From: a virus
Lineage: Duplodnaviria > Heunggongvirae > Uroviricota > Caudoviricetes
Virus record (IMG/VR): IMGVR_UViG_2700989272_000004
Location: 1 to 14,487 of that record
DNA length: 14,487 bases
Strand: one strand, 5' to 3'
Shown here: piece after piece, positions 2,455 through 14,295 of the stretch
Layout: each line of letters begins with the position of its first letter
Numbering within the stretch: position 1 is the stretch's first letter
Notes under the pieces: model-generated
The model's database searches: none
What the model was told of the DNA's origin: nothing
The model's input: the letters and a program-made list of their open reading frames with translations, nothing else
Translations under genes and position numbers: made by a program

Positions 2455-3023
2455 AAACGGGGGCTGAAGCCATTCGGGCGCTGGCCACACAGCTCCCGGC
2501 GTTTCGTCAGAAACTGAGCGACGGCTGGTATCAGGTACGGATTGCCGGGCAGGATGTCAGCACGTCCGGATTAACGGCGCAGTTACATGAGACTCTGCCT
2601 GATGGCGCTGTGATTCATATTGTTCCCAGAGTCGCCGGGGCCAAGTCAGGTGGCGTATTCCAGATTGTCCTGGGGGCTGCCGCCATTGCCGGATCATTCT
2701 TTACCGCCGGGGCCACCCTTGCAGCATGGGGGGCAGCCATTGGGGCCGGTGGTATGACCGGCATCCTGTTTTCTCTCGGTGCCAGTATGGTGCTCGGTGG
2801 TGTGGCGCAGATGCTGGCACCGAAAGCCAGAACTCCCCGTACACAGACAACGGATAACGGCAAACAGAACACCTATTTCTCCTCACTGGATAACATGGTT
2901 GCCCAGGGCAATGTTCTGCCTGTTCTGTACGGTGAAATGCGCGTGGGGTCACGCGTGGTTTCTCAGGAGATCAGCACGGCAGACGAAGGGGATGGTGGTC
3001 AGGTTGTGGTGATTGGTCGCTGA
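2352..3023 (+). CDS. I: Tail tip assembly protein I (223 aa)
   Basis: 223-aa ORF overlapping the K 3' end. Sequence matches lambda gpI from memory, including a Gly/Ala-rich hydrophobic segment (GAAAIAGSFFTAGATLAAWGAAIGAGG). Confidence 0.9.
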   Translation: MAATHTLPLASPGMARICLYGDLQRFGRRIDLRVKTGAEAIRALATQLPAFRQKLSDGWYQVRIAGQDVSTSGLTAQLHETLPDGAVIHIVPRVAGAKSGGVFQIVLGAAAIAGSFFTAGATLAAWGAAIGAGGMTGILFSLGASMVLGGVAQMLAPKARTPRTQTTDNGKQNTYFSSLDNMVAQGNVLPVLYGEMRVGSRVVSQEISTADEGDGGQVVVIGR

Positions 3024-3041
3024 TGCAAAATGTTTTATGTG

Positions 3042-3061
3042 AAACCGCCTGCGGGCGGTTT
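3042..3061 (+). other. Stem-loop in the I-J intergenic spacer (possible mRNA structure, not a full terminator)
   Basis: AAACCGCC (3042-3049), loop TGCG, GGCGGTTT (3054-3061). Followed by a T-poor sequence and the J ribosome-binding site. Confidence 0.3.
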
Positions 3062-3083
3062 TGTCGTTTATGGAGCGTGAGGA

Positions 3084-6000
3084 ATGGGTAAAGGCAGCAG
3101 TAAGGGGCATACCCCGCGCGAAGCGAAGGACAACCTGAAGTCCACGCAGCTGCTGAGTGTGATCGATGCCATCAGCGAAGGGCCGGTTGAAGGTCCGGTG
3201 GACGGATTAAAAAGCGTGCTGCTGAACAGTACGCCGGTGCTGGACAGTGAGGGGAATACCAATATATCCGGCGTCACGGTGGTGTTCCGGACCGGTGAGC
3301 AGGAGCAGTCACCGCCGGAGGGATTTGAATCCTCCGGCTCCGAGACGGTGCTGGGTACGGAAGTGAAATATGACACGCCGATCACCCGGGCCATTACGTC
3401 TGCAAACATCGACCGTCTGCGCTTTACCTTCGGTGTACAGGCACTGGTGGAAACCACCTCAAAGGGGGACCGGAATCCGTCGGAAGTCCGCCTGCTGGTT
3501 CAGATACAGCGTAATGGTGGCTGGGTGACGGAAAAAGACATCACCATTAAGGGCAAAACCACCTCGCAGTATCTGGCCTCGGTGGTGGTGGATAACCTGC
3601 CGCCGCGCCCGTTCAATATACGGATGCGCAGGATGACGCCGGACAGCACCACAGACCAGCTGCAGAACAAAACGCTCTGGTCGTCATACACCGAAATCAT
3701 CGATGTGAAACAGTGCTACCCGAACACGGCCCTGGTCGGCGTGCAGGTGGATTCGGAGCAGTTCGGCAGCCAGCAGGTGAGCCGTAATTATCATCTGCGC
3801 GGGCGCATTCTGCAGGTGCCGTCGAACTATAACCCGCAGACGCGGCAATACAGCGGTATCTGGGATGGAACGTTTAAGCCAGCATACAGCAACAACATGG
3901 CCTGGTGTCTGTGGGATATGCTGACCCATCCGCGCTACGGCATGGGGAAACGTCTTGGTGCGGCGGATGTGGATAAATGGGCGCTGTATGTCATCGGCCA
4001 GTACTGCGACCAGTCGGTGCCGGACGGCTTTGGCGGCACGGAGCCGCGCATCACCTGTAATGCGTACCTGACCACACAGCGCAAGGCGTGGGATGTTCTC
4101 AGTGATTTCTGCTCGGCGATGCGCTGTATGCCGGTATGGAACGGGCAGACGCTGACGTTCGTGCAGGACCGACCGTCGGATAAGGTGTGGACCTATAACC
4201 GCAGTAATGTGGTGATGCCGGATGATGGCGCGCCGTTCCGCTACAGCTTCAGCGCCCTGAAGGACCGCCATAATGCCGTTGAGGTGAACTGGATTGACCC
4301 GGATAACGGCTGGGAGACGGCGACAGAGCTTGTGGAGGACACGCAGGCCATTGCCCGTTACGGTCGTAACGTCACGAAGATGGATGCCTTTGGCTGTACC
4401 AGCCGGGGGCAGGCACACCGCGCCGGGCTGTGGCTGATTAAAACGGAACTGCTGGAAATGCAGACCGTGGATTTCAGCGTGGGCGCAGAAGGGCTTCGCC
4501 ATGTGCCGGGCGATGTCATTGAAATCTGCGATGATGACTATGCCGGTATCAGCACCGGCGGGCGCGTGCTGGCGGTGAACAGCCAGACCCGGACGCTGAC
4601 GCTCGACCGTGAAATCACGCTGCCATCCTCCGGTACCACGCTGATAAGCCTGGTTGACGGAAGTGGCAATCCGGTCAGCGTGGAGGTTCAGTCCGTCACC
4701 GACGGTGTGAAGGTGAAAGTGAGCCGTGTTCCTGACGGCGTTGCCGGATACAGCATATGGGGGCTGAAGCTGCCGACGCTGCGCCAGCGCCTGTTCCGCT
4801 GTGTGAGTATCCGTGAGAACGATGACGGCACGTATGCCATCACTGCCGTGCAGCATGTACCGGAGAAAGAAGCCATCGTGGATAACGGGGCGCACTTTGA
4901 CGGCGACCAGAGCGGAACGGTAAACGGTGTCACGCCGCCAGCGGTGCAGCACCTGACCGCAGAAGTCACCGCAGACAGCGGGGAATACCAGGTGCTGGCG
5001 CGCTGGGACACGCCGAAGGTGGTGAAGGGCGTGAGTTTCCTGCTTCGCCTGACCGTGGCAGCGGATGACGGCAGTGAGCGGCTGGTCAGCACGGCCCGGA
5101 CGACGGAAACCACATACCGCTTCACGCAGCTGGCGCTGGGAAACTACAGGCTGACAGTCCGGGCGGCAAATGCCTGGGGACAGCAGGGCGATCCGGCATC
5201 GGTATCGTTCCGGATTGCCGCACCGGCAGCGCCGTCGCGGATTGAGCTGACGCCGGGCTATTTTCAGATAACCGCCACGCCGCATCTTGCCGTTTATGAT
5301 CCGACGGTACAGTTTGAGTTCTGGTTCTCGGAAAAGCGGATTGCGGATATCAGGCAGGTTGAAACCACAGCACGCTATCTTGGTACGGCGCTGTACTGGA
5401 TAGCCGCCAGTATCAATATCAAACCGGGCCATGATTATTACTTTTATATCCGCAGTGTGAACACCGTTGGCAAATCGGCATTTGTGGAGGCCGTCGGTCG
5501 GGCGAGCGATGATGCGGAAGGTTACCTGGATTTTTTCAAAGGCCAGATAACCGAATCCCATCTCGGCAAGGAGCTGCTGGAAAAAGTCGACCTGACGGAG
5601 GATAACGCCAGCAGACTGGAGGAGTTTTCGAAAGAGTGGAAAGACGCCAACGATAAATGGAATGCCATGTGGGGCGTCAAAATTGAGCAGACCAAAGACG
5701 GCAAACATTATGTCGCGGGGCTTGGCCTCAGCATGGAGGATACAGAGGAAGGCAAACTGAGCCAGTTTCTGGTTGCTGCTAACCGTATCGCGTTTATTGA
5801 CCCGGCAAACGGGAATGAAACGCCGATGTTTGTGGCGCAGGGCAACCAGATATTCATGAACGACGTGTTCCTCAAACGTCTGACGGCCCCCACCATTACC
5901 AGTGGTGGAAATCCACCGGTATTTTCCCTGACACCGGACGGAAAGCTGACCGCTAAAAATGCGGATATCAGTGGCAGTGTGAATGCGAACTCCGGGACGC

Positions 6001-6497
6001 TCAACAACGTCACGATAAATGAAAACTGTACGATTAAGGGCATGCTGGAGGCGAATCAGGTCAGAGGTGATTTTGTTAAAACAGTATCCAAATCATTCCC
6101 GAAAAAGGCTGGTACGTGGGGTAATACGGAAACACCAGACGGGACGGTTACAGTCACCATCAGCGATGATCATAACTTTGACCGTCAAATCATTATTCCG
6201 CCCATTATCTTTAACGGTATAGCGTATGACGCTCCGGGAAGTGGTGATAACCCGGGAGGTACAAGGTACACGGGGTATGGTTTTGAAGTTCGCAAAAACG
6301 GCGTATTAATCGCATCCAGAGAAACTAAAGGGGCCATTCCCGGTAGTTACAGTGCGGTTATTGATATGCCGAGTGGCAGGGGAAGCGTCACTCTGGAGTT
6401 TAAGATTTTCCAGAAAGGCAATCAGGGGGCAGGCAATATCACCGACTGTACGGTGATTGTGACCAAAAAGGCTGCTTCCGGTATCAGTATTCGTTGA
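3084..6497 (+). CDS. J: Central tail fibre / host-specificity protein J (1137 aa) with a diverged C-terminal receptor-binding domain
   Basis: ATG at 3084 preceded by GGAG/GAGGA. N-terminus [34 protein letters not shown] and most of the protein match lambda gpJ (1132 aa) from memory. The last ~150 aa (from about nt 6030) differ from the lambda C-terminus as I recall it, and the DNA there is visibly AT-richer. Confidence 0.95.
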
Positions 6498-7220: not shown

Positions 7221-7231
7221 GTGGGGTGAAT

Positions 7232-10200
7232 ATGGCAGTAAAGATTTCAGGTGTACTGAAAGACGGTGCAGGTAAACCGGTACAGAACTGCACAATCCAG
7301 CTGAAAGCAAAACGTAACAGCACCACGGTGGTGGTGAACACGGTGGCCTCAGAAAATCCGGATGAAGCCGGGCGTTACAGCATGGACGTTGAGTACGGTC
7401 AGTACAGCGTTATTCTGTTGGTGGAAGGCTTCCCGCCATCGCATGCCGGGACCATCACCGTGTATGAAGACTCACAACCGGGTACGCTGAATGATTTTCT
7501 TGGTGCCATGACGGAGGATGATGCCCGTCCGGAGGCACTGCGCCGCTTTGAACTGATGGTGGAAGAGGTGGCGCATAACGCGTCCGCAGTGGCACAGAAC
7601 ACGGCAGCCGCAAAGAAGTCAGCCAGCGATGCCGGCACATCTGCCCGTGAGGCGGCAACCCATGCAACCGATGCTGCAGGCTCAGCACGTGCCGCCAGCA
7701 CGTCAGCCGGACAGGCTGCATCATCTGCTCAGTCAGCATCTTCCAGCGCAGGAACGGCATCAACAAAGGCCACTGAAGCATTAAAAAGTGCTGCCGCTGC
7801 AGAGTCCTCAAAAAGCGCGGCAGCCACCAGTGCCGGTGCGGCGAAAACGTCAGAAACGAATGCCGCAGCATCACAACTATCAGCAGCCACTTCTGCATCC
7901 ACCGCGACCACGAAGGCGTCAGAAGCTGCCACCTCAGCCCGGGATGCGGCGGCCTCAAAAGAGGCAGCGAAATCATCAGAAACGAACGCATCATCAAGTG
8001 CCAGTAGTGCAGCTTCCTCGGCAACGGCGGCAGGAAATTCCGCGAAGGCCGCAAAAACGTCTGAGACGAATGCGGATAACAGCGCACAGGCGGCAGCAGA
8101 CTCACAAACTGCATCGGCAAACTCCGCGACAGCAGCCAAAAAATCAGAAACCAACGCGAAAAATAGCGAGGCAGCAGCAAAGAGCAGCGAAACAAACGCT
8201 AAAGCCAGCGAAACTAATGCTAAATCCAGTGAAACAAACGCGGCGAAATCTGCGGCGGACGCACTTAATTATCGCAACCAGGCGCAAGTAATTGTTGGGG
8301 GTAATATCGGTCTTGGCTCAGCTCCGCGTGATTGTCCTGATATTTCCGGCAACCCATCAGGGTATATCGGATTTATGCGTATTCGTGAAGCAGCCACTGG
8401 TTTTCCGTCCATTGCTTCAGGTGAGTCGTACTTAACAGGCTTTATTAGCGGTTGCGATGGTTCTCCTACATATGCGGGTATATTCCAGGGTTGGAATTCA
8501 AGATCCCTGTATACCTATCGCTGGTCGAGCGCCACAGGCCCGCAATGGACACGTCACGCAAGAAAGGATGAAGTTGACCGTCTTGACCAATGGAATAGCG
8601 AAACATGGTTATATAATCATGATAAATCCATGCGACTTGGTTTAACCGCCTCATCATGGGGTTGTTACAGCGACACACAAAAAAAATGGATACCACTTGA
8701 TGTTTCTCATGGTGGTACTGGTGCGGCAACTATTGATGGTGCAAGAACTAATCTTGGATTAGGCAGGGATAACAGCCCTCAACTTAACAGTCTATTTCTT
8801 GATAGATATAGTGATTCTACTGGCGCATACACTACTGGCGGAATGCTCCATACGAGGCTGTTAGCAAATGACAACACTGTGCGCCTTGCCGCTGATATGT
8901 ATGTTCAGACTTTTCCAAATGAGCAAGGTCGATTAACAATAAGGTTTACATACGGTGGTTCAACTGGTGCTACAAAATGTCTAGACCTTAACTCAGAAGG
9001 TAATTTAATTGTAGATAGTGCGATACTGAAATCAACGGTCGAAAAACCTTTACAAATAAATAGTGCTAACCCGGCAATAAGATTTAATGAAACAGATCGC
9101 CCGGCTAACACGCCTACTTATACTCTCATTGCTAATGCTGGCGACTGGTTTATTCAGAAACGCGATTATGATGATGCCGGAAGCGTTAGTAACGCAATTT
9201 CATATAATTTCGCAAACGACAGAATTGATGTGCAAAATCTTAAAGCGTCTGGGTTAATTACAGCTAACTCAGGAATCGCAACATTAACAGGTCATGACTG
9301 GAACGCTCAGCATACTGATAACGTCGACAAATTTAGACCAATCGCAGGCAGTACAAACGGCCCGGCAGGTTCTATGGTTCTTGGCGGCATTCATGTTCAA
9401 TTTAGTAAAAATTATGCTGTGCAGTTCGGAGGCCGCAATTCCGGTTTTTGGGGAAGAACAATTGAAAATGGAACGACGCAGGAATGGAAGAAATTACTAA
9501 CAGTAGACGATCTCAATTCATCTACCGATCTTGCTGTCAGGTCATTAACCACATCTAACCCGGTAAAATCTGGCGGAGGGCGAATTGATGTCCTTGGAAG
9601 CACGTCAGACTATAGCAAAATGGATTGCTTTGTACGTGGGTTTGATAGCACCGGTAATTCTCTCGCGTGGGCGTTGGGTTCATCAGTCGGCGTAAGTAAG
9701 ATGCTGTCGCTAAAAAATTTCTTTAGCGGAGCTGAGATACTGTTAAATGGTAATGACGGCGCGGTTCAACTCAAAACAGGTGCTGTTAACGGGGCTAAAG
9801 CGCAGACGCTCACTATCAACAAGGATGAGGTTAACTCAACTGTTGATTTAACTCTTACAAAACAAACAGGGACTGGAAATAGTTTTGTTTTACAGAACTT
9901 AGGTAATACAGAACTATCATTTGCCGCAAAAGTATGGGGATCAAGTGATCGACAAAACGTTTTTGAGGTTGGAACGTCTGCTGCGTATCTGTTTTATGCG
10001 CAAAAAACGTCAGCAGGCCAGTTGTTTGATGTAAATGGCGCTATTAATTGCACAACGCTGAATCAGTCATCAGACCGCGACCTTAAAGACGATATTCTCG
10101 TTATCAGCGACGCGACGAAAGCAATCCGTAAAATGAACGGATACACCTACACGCTCAGGGAAAACGGGATGCCTTATGCTGGCGTTATTGCACAGGAAGT

Positions 10201-10504
10201 AATGGAGGCGATACCAGAAGCTGTGGGATCGTTTACTCATTACGGTGAAGAGTTGCAGGGACCAACGGTTGACGGCAATGAATTACGTGAAGAAACACGT
10301 TATCTGAATGTTGACTACGCCGCCGTGACGGGGTTACTTGTTCAGGTCGCCCGTGAAACAGATGATCGCGTTACCGCGCTGGAAGAGGAAAACACAACGC
10401 TACGTCAAAATCTGGCAACAGCAGGCACCCGGATCAGCATTCTGGAAAATCAGGTAAGCGAACTGGTTGCACTTGTCCGGCAGTTAACAGGAAGCGAACA
10501 TTGA
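7232..10504 (+). CDS. stf: Side tail fibre protein, mosaic: lambda Stf-like N-terminus with Ser/Ala-rich repeats, novel C-terminal module ending in a peptidase-S74-like intramolecular chaperone domain
   Basis: ATG at 7232 with GGGGTG upstream (the ORF track starts at an in-frame GTG at 7226). N-terminal ~280 aa (MAVKISGVLKDGAGKPVQNCTIQLKAKRNSTTVVV...) match lambda Stf from memory. The C-terminal ~145 aa (SDRDLKDDILVISDATKAIRKMNGYTYT...LEEENTTLRQNLA...) resemble the self-cleaving chaperone domain of K1F endosialidase / T5 pb1-type fibres. DNA after about nt 8280 is visibly AT-richer. Confidence 0.88.
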   Translation: MAVKISGVLKDGAGKPVQNCTIQLKAKRNSTTVVVNTVASENPDEAGRYSMDVEYGQYSVILLVEGFPPSHAGTITVYEDSQPGTLNDFLGAMTEDDARPEALRRFELMVEEVAHNASAVAQNTAAAKKSASDAGTSAREAATHATDAAGSARAASTSAGQAASSAQSASSSAGTASTKATEALKSAAAAESSKSAAATSAGAAKTSETNAAASQLSAATSASTATTKASEAATSARDAAASKEAAKSSETNASSSASSAASSATAAGNSAKAAKTSETNADNSAQAAADSQTASANSATAAKKSETNAKNSEAAAKSSETNAKASETNAKSSETNAAKSAADALNYRNQAQVIVGGNIGLGSAPRDCPDISGNPSGYIGFMRIREAATGFPSIASGESYLTGFISGCDGSPTYAGIFQGWNSRSLYTYRWSSATGPQWTRHARKDEVDRLDQWNSETWLYNHDKSMRLGLTASSWGCYSDTQKKWIPLDVSHGGTGAATIDGARTNLGLGRDNSPQLNSLFLDRYSDSTGAYTTGGMLHTRLLANDNTVRLAADMYVQTFPNEQGRLTIRFTYGGSTGATKCLDLNSEGNLIVDSAILKSTVEKPLQINSANPAIRFNETDRPANTPTYTLIANAGDWFIQKRDYDDAGSVSNAISYNFANDRIDVQNLKASGLITANSGIATLTGHDWNAQHTDNVDKFRPIAGSTNGPAGSMVLGGIHVQFSKNYAVQFGGRNSGFWGRTIENGTTQEWKKLLTVDDLNSSTDLAVRSLTTSNPVKSGGGRIDVLGSTSDYSKMDCFVRGFDSTGNSLAWALGSSVGVSKMLSLKNFFSGAEILLNGNDGAVQLKTGAVNGAKAQTLTINKDEVNSTVDLTLTKQTGTGNSFVLQNLGNTELSFAAKVWGSSDRQNVFEVGTSAAYLFYAQKTSAGQLFDVNGAINCTTLNQSSDRDLKDDILVISDATKAIRKMNGYTYTLRENGMPYAGVIAQEVMEAIPEAVGSFTHYGEELQGPTVDGNELREETRYLNVDYAAVTGLLVQVARETDDRVTALEEENTTLRQNLATAGTRISILENQVSELVALVRQLTGSEH
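8180..8242 (+). repeat. Three tandem in-frame 21-bp repeats encoding K(S/A)SETNA heptads, inside a wider Ser/Ala-rich low-complexity tract (about 7590-8260) of stf
   Basis: Codons read KSSETNA-KASETNA-KSSETNA at 8180-8242. Further dispersed (K/A)(T/S)SETNA copies near 7847, 7970, 8055 and 8140. Confidence 0.8.
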
Positions 10505-10552
10505 TATCCTTCAAGCCCTGAAGGAGGCTGTTCCTGGTACGTTCAGACTGTT

Positions 10553-10675
10553 GTTGAGCTGGAGATCGCAACGGAGGAAGAAATCTCGTTGCTGGAAGCA
10601 TGGAAAACATATCGGGTATTGCTGAACCGTGTTGATACAGTAAACCCCGTCTGGCCTCCACCTTCGAAGCGATAG
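10553..10675 (+). pseudogene. 3'-terminal remnant of a tail fibre assembly gene (tfa), about 40 codons, no start codon
   Basis: Translation [40 protein letters not shown] matches the conserved Tfa C-terminus (lambda Tfa ends ...[36 protein letters not shown]... as I recall). It is in frame with, and 3' of, the stf TGA stop at 10502-10504. Confidence 0.65.
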
Positions 10676-10979
10676 CCCAGCAACTCCTAAATAGCTGCGC
10701 ATAATACCGCTACACCAGCCGTTTTACTGACATTTGGAATATTGCGTGAGGGCAACATATCGAGGGGCAGATACAGCTCGGTCAAATAGAAAAACAGCCC
10801 CACTATTTACCATGCAATAGCTGGTCAAAAGGAGAGCACTATTCCGCTCCGCGTAGTATTTTGTGTTTATAGTGATAACTTAGGTAATGCTTAGTCACTA
10901 AGATACTTTGCTATTGGAGAGCGATTTATAATGTGGGCGCAACAGATTTTTACTATTGCGCCACTTGCTCTTGTGAGTA

Positions 10980-12068
10980 CTATTCGCTATAAGTTAATGT
11001 TGGTTTTGAAAGTCTTTTGGATATTGTTTTTCCGATATTAATGAATGGAGTTTCAATATATTTATAAATAAAGAATGATAAGAACAAGCTAAGAGCAATA
11101 ATGAATGAAAACTTAGAAAACCCAGGTTTTTCATAAAGCGGAATGAAATCCTTAAAATTAATTAAAAATAGCATTACTATCGCATGGGATAAATACAGAG
11201 AGTAAGAGATATCACCTAGCTTACTGAGTATTTTATTTTCCCTTAATCCGAAGTTAACTTCATAAAGTAAAACTCCCGTAATTATGGAGGCTGCCCACAA
11301 TCCGAAGTTTAAAGGGCCATGACCAAATCTGAATTGATAAAAATATGAGCAAACACCAAATGAAACCAAAAGGAATGATATCGCCTTTGCGTTTTTTATA
11401 TGTTTAAATTTTCTGTGTATTATATACAGAAACATCCCATAAACGAATTCTAACAGCATGGGTGATGACATTAAGTTTAGAAAGCCAATATGCCAATGAC
11501 CTGTATCACCAATCGTAAACTTACTTGATAGAGAAAGGCTGTTGGAAAATTTCAACTGTATGAGAAGTAGCGGGACTATCAATGCAATAACTGATATTAA
11601 TAATCTGTTTTTATGACTCAGCGATATTGCAAGCATAAAAATGAAATAAAAATAGACTTCAAAGGTTAATGTCCATGCTGGATAAAGCACGTTGTATCCG
11701 AAGAATGGCGCTTCTGAATAATAGTCCAGGTGAAGCAGAAACAATGAACGCAATAATTCACTTTCGGTGAAGACCGGGTTCAATAAAAAGAATAAGATTG
11801 TGCAAATGAAAAATACAGGGTAAATCCTGAAAAAACGCCTGGTCATAAAGTTAATAGGGGAATTTGTTTCTTTTTTTTGACTCGATAGCATTATTATAAA
11901 TCCACTTATAATAAAAAACAGATCAACCCCAAAACCACCACTAATAAACAATAAATCACCTAGATCTTTTTGTGCGTAAACTTCATTTAGGTATTGTTTA
12001 TTGTGATATGCAACAACGAGTAATGCTGCTACACCTCGCAAATAGTGAATTGATTTTACCTTCTTCAT
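10980..12068 (-). CDS. Acyltransferase family 3 integral membrane protein (OafA/Oac-like; putative O-antigen/LPS O-acetyltransferase), 362 aa
   Basis: Signature motifs of the acyltransferase-3 family: YLRGVAALLVVAYH (R-x10-H), GVDLFFIISGF, FMTRRFFRIYP, GDISYSLYLSHA, YIETP. Highly hydrophobic throughout. DNA is strikingly AT-rich compared with the flanking phage genes. No obvious Shine-Dalgarno sequence. Confidence 0.88.
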   Translation of the reverse strand: MKKVKSIHYLRGVAALLVVAYHNKQYLNEVYAQKDLGDLLFISGGFGVDLFFIISGFIIMLSSQKKETNSPINFMTRRFFRIYPVFFICTILFFLLNPVFTESELLRSLFLLHLDYYSEAPFFGYNVLYPAWTLTFEVYFYFIFMLAISLSHKNRLLISVIALIVPLLLIQLKFSNSLSLSSKFTIGDTGHWHIGFLNLMSSPMLLEFVYGMFLYIIHRKFKHIKNAKAISFLLVSFGVCSYFYQFRFGHGPLNFGLWAASIITGVLLYEVNFGLRENKILSKLGDISYSLYLSHAIVMLFLINFKDFIPLYEKPGFSKFSFIIALSLFLSFFIYKYIETPFINIGKTISKRLSKPTLTYSE

Positions 12069-12282
12069 TTTTATATAATCACTGTTCCAATTTTTTTTAT
12101 TTTACAAACAATTCTATCTAGCTCATTAGTACTCAAAGTCAGATTGGTAGCAATAAAAAAACAAGATATGTGATGACATGGCGCGGGGCTCAGAACCACT
12201 CGTGTATTTTCGCCACTGGCTATGACTGGCTGCACCTGCAAGATCTGCCATTTGTGTGCCAGTATACCCAAGCTCTGACTTT

Positions 12283-12784
12283 ATGTTTACCAGATCCTCT
12301 GGAGTGCCGGGGAGTATAATCGTTGATTAATCGAATCTGCAACTATTTCAGAACGACCTAGGTTAAAGTGCGCTCTGCAGTCTCTTATATAAGGTGATAC
12401 TTTAATTGTCTGGAAACTGGACAGGTTAGGAAGGAGCAGGAAACATCTTATTATACTTACCGAGTAGCTGCGGGTAAGGGGGGGGGATTTCCGTAGCCTG
12501 ACAGGTAACATTGACACGTCAACACCGATGGTTTTTTTATTTTTCCATGTGATGGGGCCCTGGTTGAAATGAAGCGTGAACTGATTGATGACTGAACAAA
12601 AGTTGGACTGGAAGATGCTCGCGCACAGGGAGGAATTGGTGGACGTCGTCCTAAACTTACATCAGAACAATGGGCGCAGGCCGGGCGATTAATTGCATCA
12701 GGAGTTCCTCGCCAGAAGGTGGCGATCATCTATGATATTGGCATATCGACTTTGTATAAGAAGTTTCCGGTCGGAGATAAATGA
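12283..12784 (+). pseudogene. Decayed serine DNA invertase gene (Pin/Hin/Gin/Cin family) with frameshifts and in-frame stops
   Basis: Recognisable invertase segments lie in three different frames: ERPRLKCALQSLI*GDTLIVWKLDRLGRSRKHLIILTE (frame of 12393), DFRSLTGNIDTSTPM and FFHVMGALVEMKRELIDD* around 12487-12595, and an intact C-terminal helix-turn-helix GGIGGRRPKLTSEQWAQAGRLIASGVPRQKVAIIYDIGISTLYKKFPVGDK* (12629-12784). In-frame stops at 12390 and 12593. Confidence 0.75.
12478..12486 (+). repeat. G9 homopolymer tract inside the invertase pseudogene
   Basis: Nine consecutive G at 12478-12486. The invertase reading frame changes in this neighbourhood. Confidence 0.9.
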
Positions 12785-12887
12785 AACCGTAGCACGTCGT
12801 ATGCAAGAACGTGCCACGGCTGGCTGGCGAACTTTCGATAGTGCGAGTATTGAATGATTTCCAGCCGTTACCGATTTTACGTGTTAA

Positions 12888-13136
12888 TTAGTGAACAAAC
12901 CACTCGTCAGCAGATTCCCAGGTGTCTTTCAGAGTCTCCTGAACAAAAGTTTTTGCAGAATCCTTATCTGCGGTGCGTGTAACAGAAAGACCATCGTTGC
13001 TGGTGGCTTTTACGATCACCTCTACATCGTCATAACGTTTACTGATGCGTCGGGTTAATTCTTCCTTTAACGCATCCACAGCACCGGTTGGCATTTTAGT
13101 CATTTTTTCTTTGGCTATGCAGATTTCAATACGCAT
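12888..13136 (-). CDS. DinI-family protein (DNA-damage-inducible protein I-like), 82 aa
   Basis: [11 protein letters not shown]...[16 protein letters not shown] resembles E. coli DinI (MRIEVTIAK...ETWESADDWFV) as I recall it. GAGGGA Shine-Dalgarno 6 nt upstream of the ATG. Two LexA boxes in its promoter. Confidence 0.85.
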
Positions 13137-13149
13137 AAAAGTCCCTCTA

Positions 13150-13169
13150 TACTGTGTTTGTATACAGTA
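13150..13169 (-). promoter_or_regulatory. LexA (SOS) box 1, promoter-proximal, upstream of the dinI-like gene
   Basis: TACTGTGTTTGTATACAGTA: a perfect TACTG-N10-CAGTA palindrome, 14-33 nt upstream of the dinI-like start codon. Confidence 0.75.
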
Positions 13170-13171
13170 TT

Positions 13172-13201
13172 ATTTTTAACTGTATGGATAAACAGTGTCA
13201 A
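13172..13201 (-). promoter_or_regulatory. Putative sigma70 promoter of the dinI-like gene (-35 TTGACA, 17-nt spacer, -10 TAAAAAT)
   Basis: On the - strand: TTGACA (complement of 13196-13201), 17-nt spacer, TAAAAA(T) (complement of 13172-13178). The -35 overlaps the integrase stop codon at 13198-13200. Confidence 0.5.
13178..13197 (-). promoter_or_regulatory. LexA (SOS) box 2, lying in the spacer of the putative dinI-like promoter
   Basis: AACTGTATGGATAAACAGTG (CTGT-N8-ACAG core), centred about 28 bp from box 1. Confidence 0.65.
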
Positions 13202-14295
13202 GGGGTCTTATTTCTGCTCCTTTGGAGCTCTTCAAAACGATTATGTAAAGATTTCGGATACAGTTCGGTATATACCTGCCATAGCACGTTTAATGAACGA
13301 TGCCCTGTAACCTGGGCTACTTCCTCAATACTAAAACCAGCCTCAAATAAGCGACTTGCCCCTTCTCTACGCAAATCATGGTATCGCAGATCCTTAATAC
13401 CTAATTTGCTTCTTACCCTCTGAAATCCCGCAGTAACAGAAGTGCTGTTATATGGAAAAATGAATTCCGATTTTTTGGGCTGTCGTTGGACGATATCCCA
13501 GGCTTCCCCAAGCAAGGCTACTTTCATGTGGTTGCCTTCCTTTTTGCGTGGATCTTTCCTGTCTCTTACGAGTATAGATTTTTGTTCCTGGTCGAGATCT
13601 TCCCATCGTAACCGGCATACTTCTCCGATTCGCATACAGGACCACACAGAAAATTTGAGGATATCAACGAACGGAATTTTTGAGCATTTATGAGTAGATC
13701 GTTGTTGAAGGCCTTCAATGAGCATGTCCAGTTCATCAGATGCTGGTCTACGATTACGACGGTTTGATTTACCAATCAAACCAAGTTTAAGTAGATATGG
13801 ACGAGCACTTTTCGCCGGGTTTGATGTGTAATTAATTCCGTATACAGGTTTGGCCGCATCCAGAACACTGCCAAGATAACTAACATCGTGGCTGACTGTT
13901 GCTGGACCTGCGCCAGCGTTGTTTCTTAGCCTGCAATGTTCAATTACGTCATTTTCTGTCAGTTCAGATAGTTTGATCGCGGAGATGTCACTATCCATAA
14001 GCAGTTCCAGCACATATCTTTTAGTACGGCCTGCTTTACCTCCGGCATTTGGGTCATTTAAATATTTGTGTAGTAAGTCACGGACTGTAAGTCCGTCAAC
14101 TGCATTTGATGATGGAATGCCATATAGATCTAATTCCATCACTTTCTGTGTGCCCCATGTTTTGGCATGAGCATGTTTAGGGAATGTTTTGCTTTCCCTG
14201 TAAGTGATAACACCTTTTTCTTTGATAATCACATTACAGCGATAGCGTGGTGTGCCATCGGATTTTAGTCGTTTCTCTATGTTATAGTACGCCAT
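13198..14295 (-). CDS. int: Tyrosine recombinase / phage integrase, 365 aa
   Basis: 365-aa ORF with GAGG Shine-Dalgarno 8 nt upstream. C-terminal catalytic-domain motifs typical of tyrosine integrases: LRYHDLRREGASRL (H-x-x-R) and VTGHRSLNVLWQVYTELY (His plus nucleophilic Tyr). Confidence 0.92.
   Translation of the reverse strand: MAYYNIEKRLKSDGTPRYRCNVIIKEKGVITYRESKTFPKHAHAKTWGTQKVMELDLYGIPSSNAVDGLTVRDLLHKYLNDPNAGGKAGRTKRYVLELLMDSDISAIKLSELTENDVIEHCRLRNNAGAGPATVSHDVSYLGSVLDAAKPVYGINYTSNPAKSARPYLLKLGLIGKSNRRNRRPASDELDMLIEGLQQRSTHKCSKIPFVDILKFSVWSCMRIGEVCRLRWEDLDQEQKSILVRDRKDPRKKEGNHMKVALLGEAWDIVQRQPKKSEFIFPYNSTSVTAGFQRVRSKLGIKDLRYHDLRREGASRLFEAGFSIEEVAQVTGHRSLNVLWQVYTELYPKSLHNRFEELQRSRNKTP

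Follow-up and report, generated by a model that had tools for sequence, protein, structure and literature searches.

The window, that is, the whole analysed stretch of 14,487 nucleotides, is the right end of an E. coli prophage with lambdoid tail genes. In it a J-like open reading frame (ORF) is followed by Lom and a 1092-aa side tail fibre, and the remains of a DNA invertase gene (pin) lie further downstream, before the integrase. The features surrounding these remains are as follows:

3084–6497: ORF of 1137 aa from the ORF list, tail tip protein J according to the annotation of relatives
7226–10504, + strand: side tail fibre, its C-terminus an S74 intramolecular chaperone domain; fixed rather than invertible
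10541–10657, + strand: tfa relic, C-terminal 39 codons only (tblastn; PGAP pseudogene)
10980–12068, − strand: acyltransferase (Acyl_transf_3), 32% GC, in the position held by the inverted fibre cassette of intact relatives
12069–12335, no strand: module-specific spacer of 267 bp, 40% GC, with no invertase homology and no crossover site
12785–12870, + strand: conserved non-coding stretch past the pin stop, with two hairpins (fold −33 kcal/mol, z = −2.3)
12888–14295, − strand: dinI-like gene and tyrosine integrase, adjoining the start of dusA; prophage end

The tfa stub has about 88–90% nucleotide identity to the 3′ ends of tfaQ and tfaR, and it matches residues 133–171 of Mu U in tblastn (E = 1.4e-9). 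The acyltransferase that follows it, 362 aa encoded at 32% GC within a window of 50% GC, is probably a foreign 'moron' specifying an O-antigen or surface-sugar acetyltransferase; elsewhere it is disrupted by an internal stop (ETEC1731), a nearby IS21 insertion (E203449) or an IS1 deletion (042 lineage). The spacer 12069–12335 probably holds the promoter and 5′ region of this gene. A variable poly-T run at 12091–12098 (poly-A on the gene strand) precedes the acyltransferase ATG by 23–30 nt; T7, T8 and T9 all occur, depending on the strain, and at T9 (E203449) the PGAP product is longer, 391 aa. The length of this run may affect the expression of the predicted surface-modifying acyltransferase.

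On the other side of pin, the 85–100 bp after the stop codon are kept beside quite different pin alleles and in differing prophage contexts, and 12785–12870 is probably the pin terminator. A terminator scan of 11900–13200 found none, and there is no Rfam family anywhere in the window.

Homology and lesions of the pin remains

With a probability of roughly 0.9, the segment 12336–12784 is an inert pseudogene, derived from a serine DNA invertase gene of the Din family (Pin/Gin/Cin/Hin type) and without enzymatic function. Its internal features are the following:

12336–12557, + strand: codons 36–109 of the pin pseudogene, remainder of the Resolvase catalytic domain (tblastn, Pfam)
12390–12392, + strand: in-frame TAA at codon 54, in every intact comparison copy of a 16-copy alignment
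12465–12467, + strand: in-frame TAG at codon 79 (position computed; 16-copy alignment)
12478–12486, + strand: G9 homopolymer, in frame here, coding R-G-G-D; length varies among strains
12532–12538, + strand: T7 homopolymer; T7, T8 or T9 among strains (tract tally)
12554–12557, + strand: GGGG, one base short of the intact ATGGGTGCCCTGG; deficit in all pseudogene copies examined
12557–12784, + strand: codons 110–184 with the natural TGA stop; last part of the catalytic domain, followed by HTH_7 (tblastn, Pfam)
12593–12595, + strand: in-frame TGA in place of the CGA of intact genes, codon 122 (16-copy alignment)
12690–12700, no strand: recombination crossover interval (informative-site comparison)

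The family assignment is carried by two kinds of search. When the intact 184-aa invertase of vB_EcoM-689R6 was used as the tblastn query, invertase-derived sequence was found in the window at E = 1e-56, and the second query, Mu Gin, gave E = 3e-45 with residues 36–180 homologous, both values being combined over the two collinear segments. The stop-masked translation of the relic matches Pfam Resolvase (E = 1.3e-22, model positions 43–144 of 145) and Pfam HTH_7 (E = 3.2e-13, model positions 1–43 of 45). The first-pass annotation, which had proposed a fossil Pin/Gin-type invertase next to stf/tfa from the letters alone, is thus borne out by both tblastn and Pfam.

The homology is collinear over invertase residues 36–184 and is read in two frames, the second segment corresponding to residues 110–184 at 12557–12781, with the natural stop at 12782–12784. 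Base 12557 is read in both frames (12336–12557 and 12557–12781), which is the mark of a 1-nt deficit; the three frames of invertase-like peptides described earlier are therefore reduced to two. The last 62 codons, 12596–12781, are open up to the natural stop, just as had been noted. After repair, the translation of the relic is 78–79% identical to the best intact proteins in a search of 5.8 billion sequences.

The gene had been drawn from 12283 onwards, and this start has to be moved. No N-terminal piece of pin (residues 1–35) was found upstream of 12336 by tblastn at word size 2 and E ≤ 10, and 12130–12345 has no Pfam match in any of the three frames, even at E ≤ 10. Since there is no homology upstream in any frame, the feature starts at 12336 and the region of the catalytic serine is absent; that is to say, 12283–12335 is not invertase-derived.

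A functional invertase has an uninterrupted frame of about 180–200 codons, an N-terminal catalytic domain with the serine nucleophile (Ser9/10) and a C-terminal HTH_7 DNA-binding domain. Of these three, only the HTH_7 domain is kept in full here: codons 1–35, including the catalytic serine, are missing, and the frame is broken by three stops and one net −1 frameshift, which is located between the T7 run (12532–12538) and GGGG (12554–12557). Because codons 1–35 and the crossover site are absent, and the remainder carries three stops and a net −1 frameshift, the gene is dead, as the first-pass annotation had concluded from at least two in-frame stops; there are three (TAA at 12390, TAG at 12465 and TGA at 12593). 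Significant collinear homology to intact invertases is thus joined to disabling lesions, as in a pseudogene.

Homopolymer runs such as G9 and T7 are typical sites of sequencing error, and their lengths vary by assembly, so the apparent lesions might be ascribed to sequencing or assembly errors in a gene that is truly intact. This explanation is almost certainly wrong. The three stops are base substitutions and the truncation is a junction with unrelated DNA; stops and truncation recur in the same form across independent projects, including Illumina metagenome contigs, and the window from 12100 to 13200 is found exactly in seven draft assemblies (GCA_0014129xx-0014136xx), so that this part is neither an assembly artefact nor a sequencing error. 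The lesions of the relic, substitutions and truncation, recur in each of the 25 further copies that were compared, all from independent assemblies. Sequencing error is thereby excluded as their cause, and error correction does not yield an intact ORF, an outcome that would have overturned the earlier reading. No observation speaks against the inertness of the gene.

In several of the seven drafts, the tfa stub is followed by a 10-N scaffold gap and then by unrelated chromosomal genes, so that the left part of the prophage is differently placed or unresolved in them.

Homopolymer tracts and the missing parts of a switch

The G9 run at 12478–12486 is real, and it had been taken for the point of a frame change and a likely slippage site. 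The frame is in fact continuous across it: the relic reads LRVRGGDFRSL, intact proteins LRERGINFRSL (or V in place of the I), with equal length in the tblastn alignment. As given above, the shift lies further downstream, between T7 and GGGG.

The slippage part of the proposal fared better. Among 26 copies the G tract is G7 in ten, G8 in five, G9 in ten (seven of them one lineage) and G10 in one; the T tract is T7 in seven, T8 in eight and T9 in one of the first 16 copies, and T7 in all ten later loci, part of these length differences possibly being long-read homopolymer errors. Both tracts are far more variable than the neighbouring DNA, which has only about 8 SNP columns in 590 bp; besides these SNP columns, only the two homopolymers vary in columns 12107–12700 of the 16-copy alignment, from whose figures one IS-disrupted copy was set aside. 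A pattern scan for G-tract variants gave two metagenome contigs (each G7), a number insufficient for population statistics, and none in a one-genome-per-species set.

Such tracts invite the reading of the invertase as a contingency gene, in which slippage at G9 would turn it on and off and thereby make the inversion of the fibre (or of something else) phase-variable. In its favour are the differences in G-tract length among strains (G7, G8, G9 and G10) and the variability of the tract far beyond that of its surroundings. Against it, G9 is already the in-frame length, yet the gene is closed by stops, by the frameshift and by the loss of codons 1–35; the crossover sites on which the enzyme would act are absent; and G9 occurs in all seven related assemblies. 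A35 and ETEC1731 illustrate the point: with T8 and G9 these copies have no net frameshift, the T8 offsetting the GGGG deficit, and they are flagged by PGAP for 'internal stop' only; they nonetheless retain all three stops and the truncation. At a contingency locus a change of tract length switches an otherwise intact gene, and here every tract length leaves the gene closed. Since the truncation and the stops are common to every copy examined, variation of the tracts cannot switch anything. For invertase function the contingency reading is refuted, and the probability left to it is negligible; slippage at the tract stands as a fact of strain variation, phase variation of an invertase does not. 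The length changes at G9 and T7 are slippage and neutral drift, without regulatory consequence.

An invertible switch also requires two inverted 26-bp crossover sites, one of them beside the invertase gene, and no such pair is present. Sites were searched by regular expression and with a half-site matrix built from Mu gix, e14-type pix and hix sites; genuine gix, pix and hix sites score 28–33 bits on this matrix. The best gix/pix-like scores were 4.8 bits in 12150–12345 and 5.1 bits in 10676–10980, so that the search proposed for 12150–12300 and 10676–10980 found no gix-like site in either span. The degenerate half-site suggested at 12285–12293, GTTTACCAG, scores about 0 bits or less and lies in DNA without homology to pin loci; it was accordingly discarded.

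The best gix/hix-like 26-mer of the window is ACTTAGAAAACCCAGGTTTTTCATAA at 11111–11136, with 16.4 bits, a score reached by 1.9% of shuffles. It is located inside the acyltransferase coding sequence (aa 311–320), without a partner, and other acyltransferase alleles read GAGAACC there, which breaks the core. It matches hixL at 20 of 26 bases. As a crossover site it was rejected as probably a chance match, being single, without partner and with its core broken in other alleles.

The space between two sites should hold, on the opposite strand, an alternative fibre C-terminus and tfa, and here the acyltransferase fills that space; when the proteins of the inverted cassettes of strain 104 and Mu were compared with the window by tblastn, only the + strand tfa stub at 10541–10657 was found. 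In the Gin and Hin systems, the Fis-dependent recombinational enhancer is in the 5′ part of the invertase gene. The deletion of codons 1–35 has removed at least some of this enhancer region. The prophage has a fixed fibre, and the proper name for the locus is a pin pseudogene, truncated and without function, rather than a candidate phase-variable invertase.

Distribution, recombination joints and origin

The segment 12100–12345 is present in 240 of 5,426 complete E. coli genomes, at an identity of at least 99% in all but one; it matches only the same module in these 240 genomes, and no phage record covers the spacer. The 5′ half of the relic is found in the same set of about 240 genomes. PGAP labels it as 'recombinase family protein; frameshifted; internal stop; incomplete; missing N-terminus' in strains including Bongo, E203449, 042, A10, A35, ETEC1731 and S30. 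In other words, the acyltransferase-spacer-'pin module (about 240 of 5,426 complete E. coli genomes) is an ordinary pseudogene already annotated by PGAP. The truncation point and all three stops are common to the 16-copy alignment, which indicates a single origin. The module is found in three contexts: at the icd/e14 site, followed by an AAA-ATPase/McrC pair; at argW/intS; and at dusA, as in this window. Phages carry the module as a unit, lesions included, to the icd, argW and dusA integration sites.

The relic itself is composed of three parts, namely a divergent 5′ half that ends near 12545, a pinE-like part that ends at 12689, and a 3′ end with its downstream flank from 12701. The 5′ half has 57–63% nucleotide identity to pinE, the phage 689R6 invertase and Mu gin. 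Against pinE, at 57%, the differences by codon position 1/2/3 are 28/18/49, with third positions saturated. Near 12545 the identity to pinE jumps to about 90%, and it is about 90% over the 3′ half (12557–12784). In a distant blastn search of the 5,426 E. coli genomes, the relatives of the 5′ half above about 74% nucleotide identity were pseudogene copies only, including one partial match to a copy split by an IS. The GC content rises from the acyltransferase (0.32) through the spacer (0.40) and the 5′ half of the relic (0.44) to its 3′ half (0.48), and the 0.44 of the 5′ half compares with 0.53 in live pin genes.

A second joint lies further downstream. Between 12542 and 12689 all 22 informative sites of the window agree with the common pseudogene type, and from 12701 through the flank it follows the pinE type of strain 104 at informative sites, except at 12730 and 12737; 12690–12900 is 98% identical to strain 104. 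The crossover lies at 12690–12700, and the 3′ end and flank from 12701 came, through homologous recombination, from the pinE of a myovirus-type prophage integrated at dusA. This crossover inside the relic thus joined the lambdoid tail/acyltransferase module to the dinI-int-dusA end, which normally belongs to a myovirus-type prophage with baseplate genes. None of the 5,426 complete E. coli genomes has the junction of the window with dinI-int-dusA; the seven draft assemblies do. The relic therefore records two recombination joints, that is, an exchange of modules among different prophage types.

It may then be asked whether the relic is kept for some role in cis or as a fragment, that is, as a homology patch for swaps of integrase and attachment ends, as an insulator or terminator of the acyltransferase region, or as the source of a small HTH protein. 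Among these, only the homology patch is an arguable role. Retention would agree with the crossover at 12690–12700, by which a lambdoid tail module became linked to a dusA-type end, with the three different right-hand ends of the module (icd, argW and dusA), with the conserved hairpin element past the pin stop and with the very small differences among the pseudogene copies. However, recombination at shared sequence is expected in mosaic phages and makes selection unnecessary, and the low diversity, too little for an assessment of selection on the relic, is equally explained by recent horizontal spread. In the open stretch of 62 codons the first ATG, GTG or TTG comes only 20 codons from the end; a stand-alone HTH protein from 12596–12781 was rejected, since it has no usable start codon. 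Retention for a residual role is thus very unlikely. A narrower form, in which the pin fragment would persist as a portable homology patch by which lambdoid siphoviruses and live-pin, e14- or Mu-like myoviruses swap their integrase/attachment ends, is also judged unlikely; were it true, this window would be one product of such an exchange.

As for the history of the inert pseudogene, it is plausible, judging from the arrangement of the genes, that it is the relic of an invertible fibre switch. The interval from the tfa stub to pin codon 35 is occupied by the acyltransferase and the 267-bp spacer, and related dusA prophages keep the full set, that is, fibre, tfa, inverted tfa′ and fibre′, the pix site and an intact pinE. 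The dusA prophage of strain 104 has, in this order, fibre, tfa, tfaE (−), fibre C-terminus (−), pix TTCTCCCAAACCAACGTTTATGAAAA, about 54 bp, pinE, dinI, int and dusA; the partner pix site is within the fibre gene, and pinE is intact, with 184 aa. The published e14 repeat is CCTTCTCCCAAACCAA (PMC12529663), and the half-site TTCTCCCAAACC is common to this repeat and both crossover sites of strain 104. By analogy, the acyltransferase module would have replaced the inverted tfa′ and fibre C-terminus, a 26-bp crossover site, and the promoter and 5′ end of pin; this replacement could have taken place either in place or in a donor phage.

The 5′ half may instead have arrived already truncated, together with the acyltransferase, from a foreign phage and then have recombined with a resident pin near 12545; its divergence and lower GC content suggest this, and the steady rise in GC fits it. 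No relative carrying this exact allele intact with a cassette upstream was found, the best intact protein among the 5.8 billion sequences being the one at 78–79%. The earlier proposal that the cassette was replaced and the invertase left to decay is consequently retained in its first half, the replacement being plausible from the tfa stub and from strains 104 and 1428, and qualified in its second, since the gene may have come in pre-truncated.

Comparison with known systems

The nearest live counterpart of the relic is pinE, of e14 and of dusA prophages such as that of strain 104 (WP_000904992.1). The two belong to the same family, with about 90% nucleotide identity in the 3′ half of the relic and 98% from 12690; they occupy the same place after the tail-fibre/tfa genes and are followed by the same conserved sequence past the stop. 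PinE is an intact protein of 184 aa, whereas in the relic codons 1–35, sites and cassette are gone and what is left of the gene is interrupted by three stops and a frameshift. In addition, a 26-bp pix site precedes the start of pinE by about 54 bp and has a partner in the fibre gene, and the two flank an invertible cassette (PMC12529663).

The gin gene of Mu holds the same place as the relic relative to the fibre/assembly genes S/U. Their nucleotide identity is 63–64%; Gin is functional and has gix sites at both ends of the G segment.

The same pseudogene is carried by E. coli 042, A35, Bongo, E203449 and the set of about 240 genomes, nearly identical over 12100–12700 and with the same truncation and stops. 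Copies of the 042/A35/Bongo/E203449 type differ from the window in their 3′ end (..KVPRQK..KRFPARII*), in the lengths of the G and T tracts, and in what follows downstream, which is either an AAA-ATPase/McrC and then icd′, or intS and tRNA-Arg.

In the dusA prophage of strain 1428, a fixed receptor-binding gene, for a glycoside hydrolase family 55 (GH55) protein, replaces the invertible cassette, and pin is a 3′, HTH-only stub before dinI-int-dusA; in the locus compared (2910–5095), a truncated stfP is left beside the HTH-only pin stub. Strain 1428 is an independent case of the same process, with a different end point of the deletion, a different inserted gene and a shorter stub of about 53 codons. 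A fixed gene has thus replaced the invertible fibre cassette more than once in these prophages.
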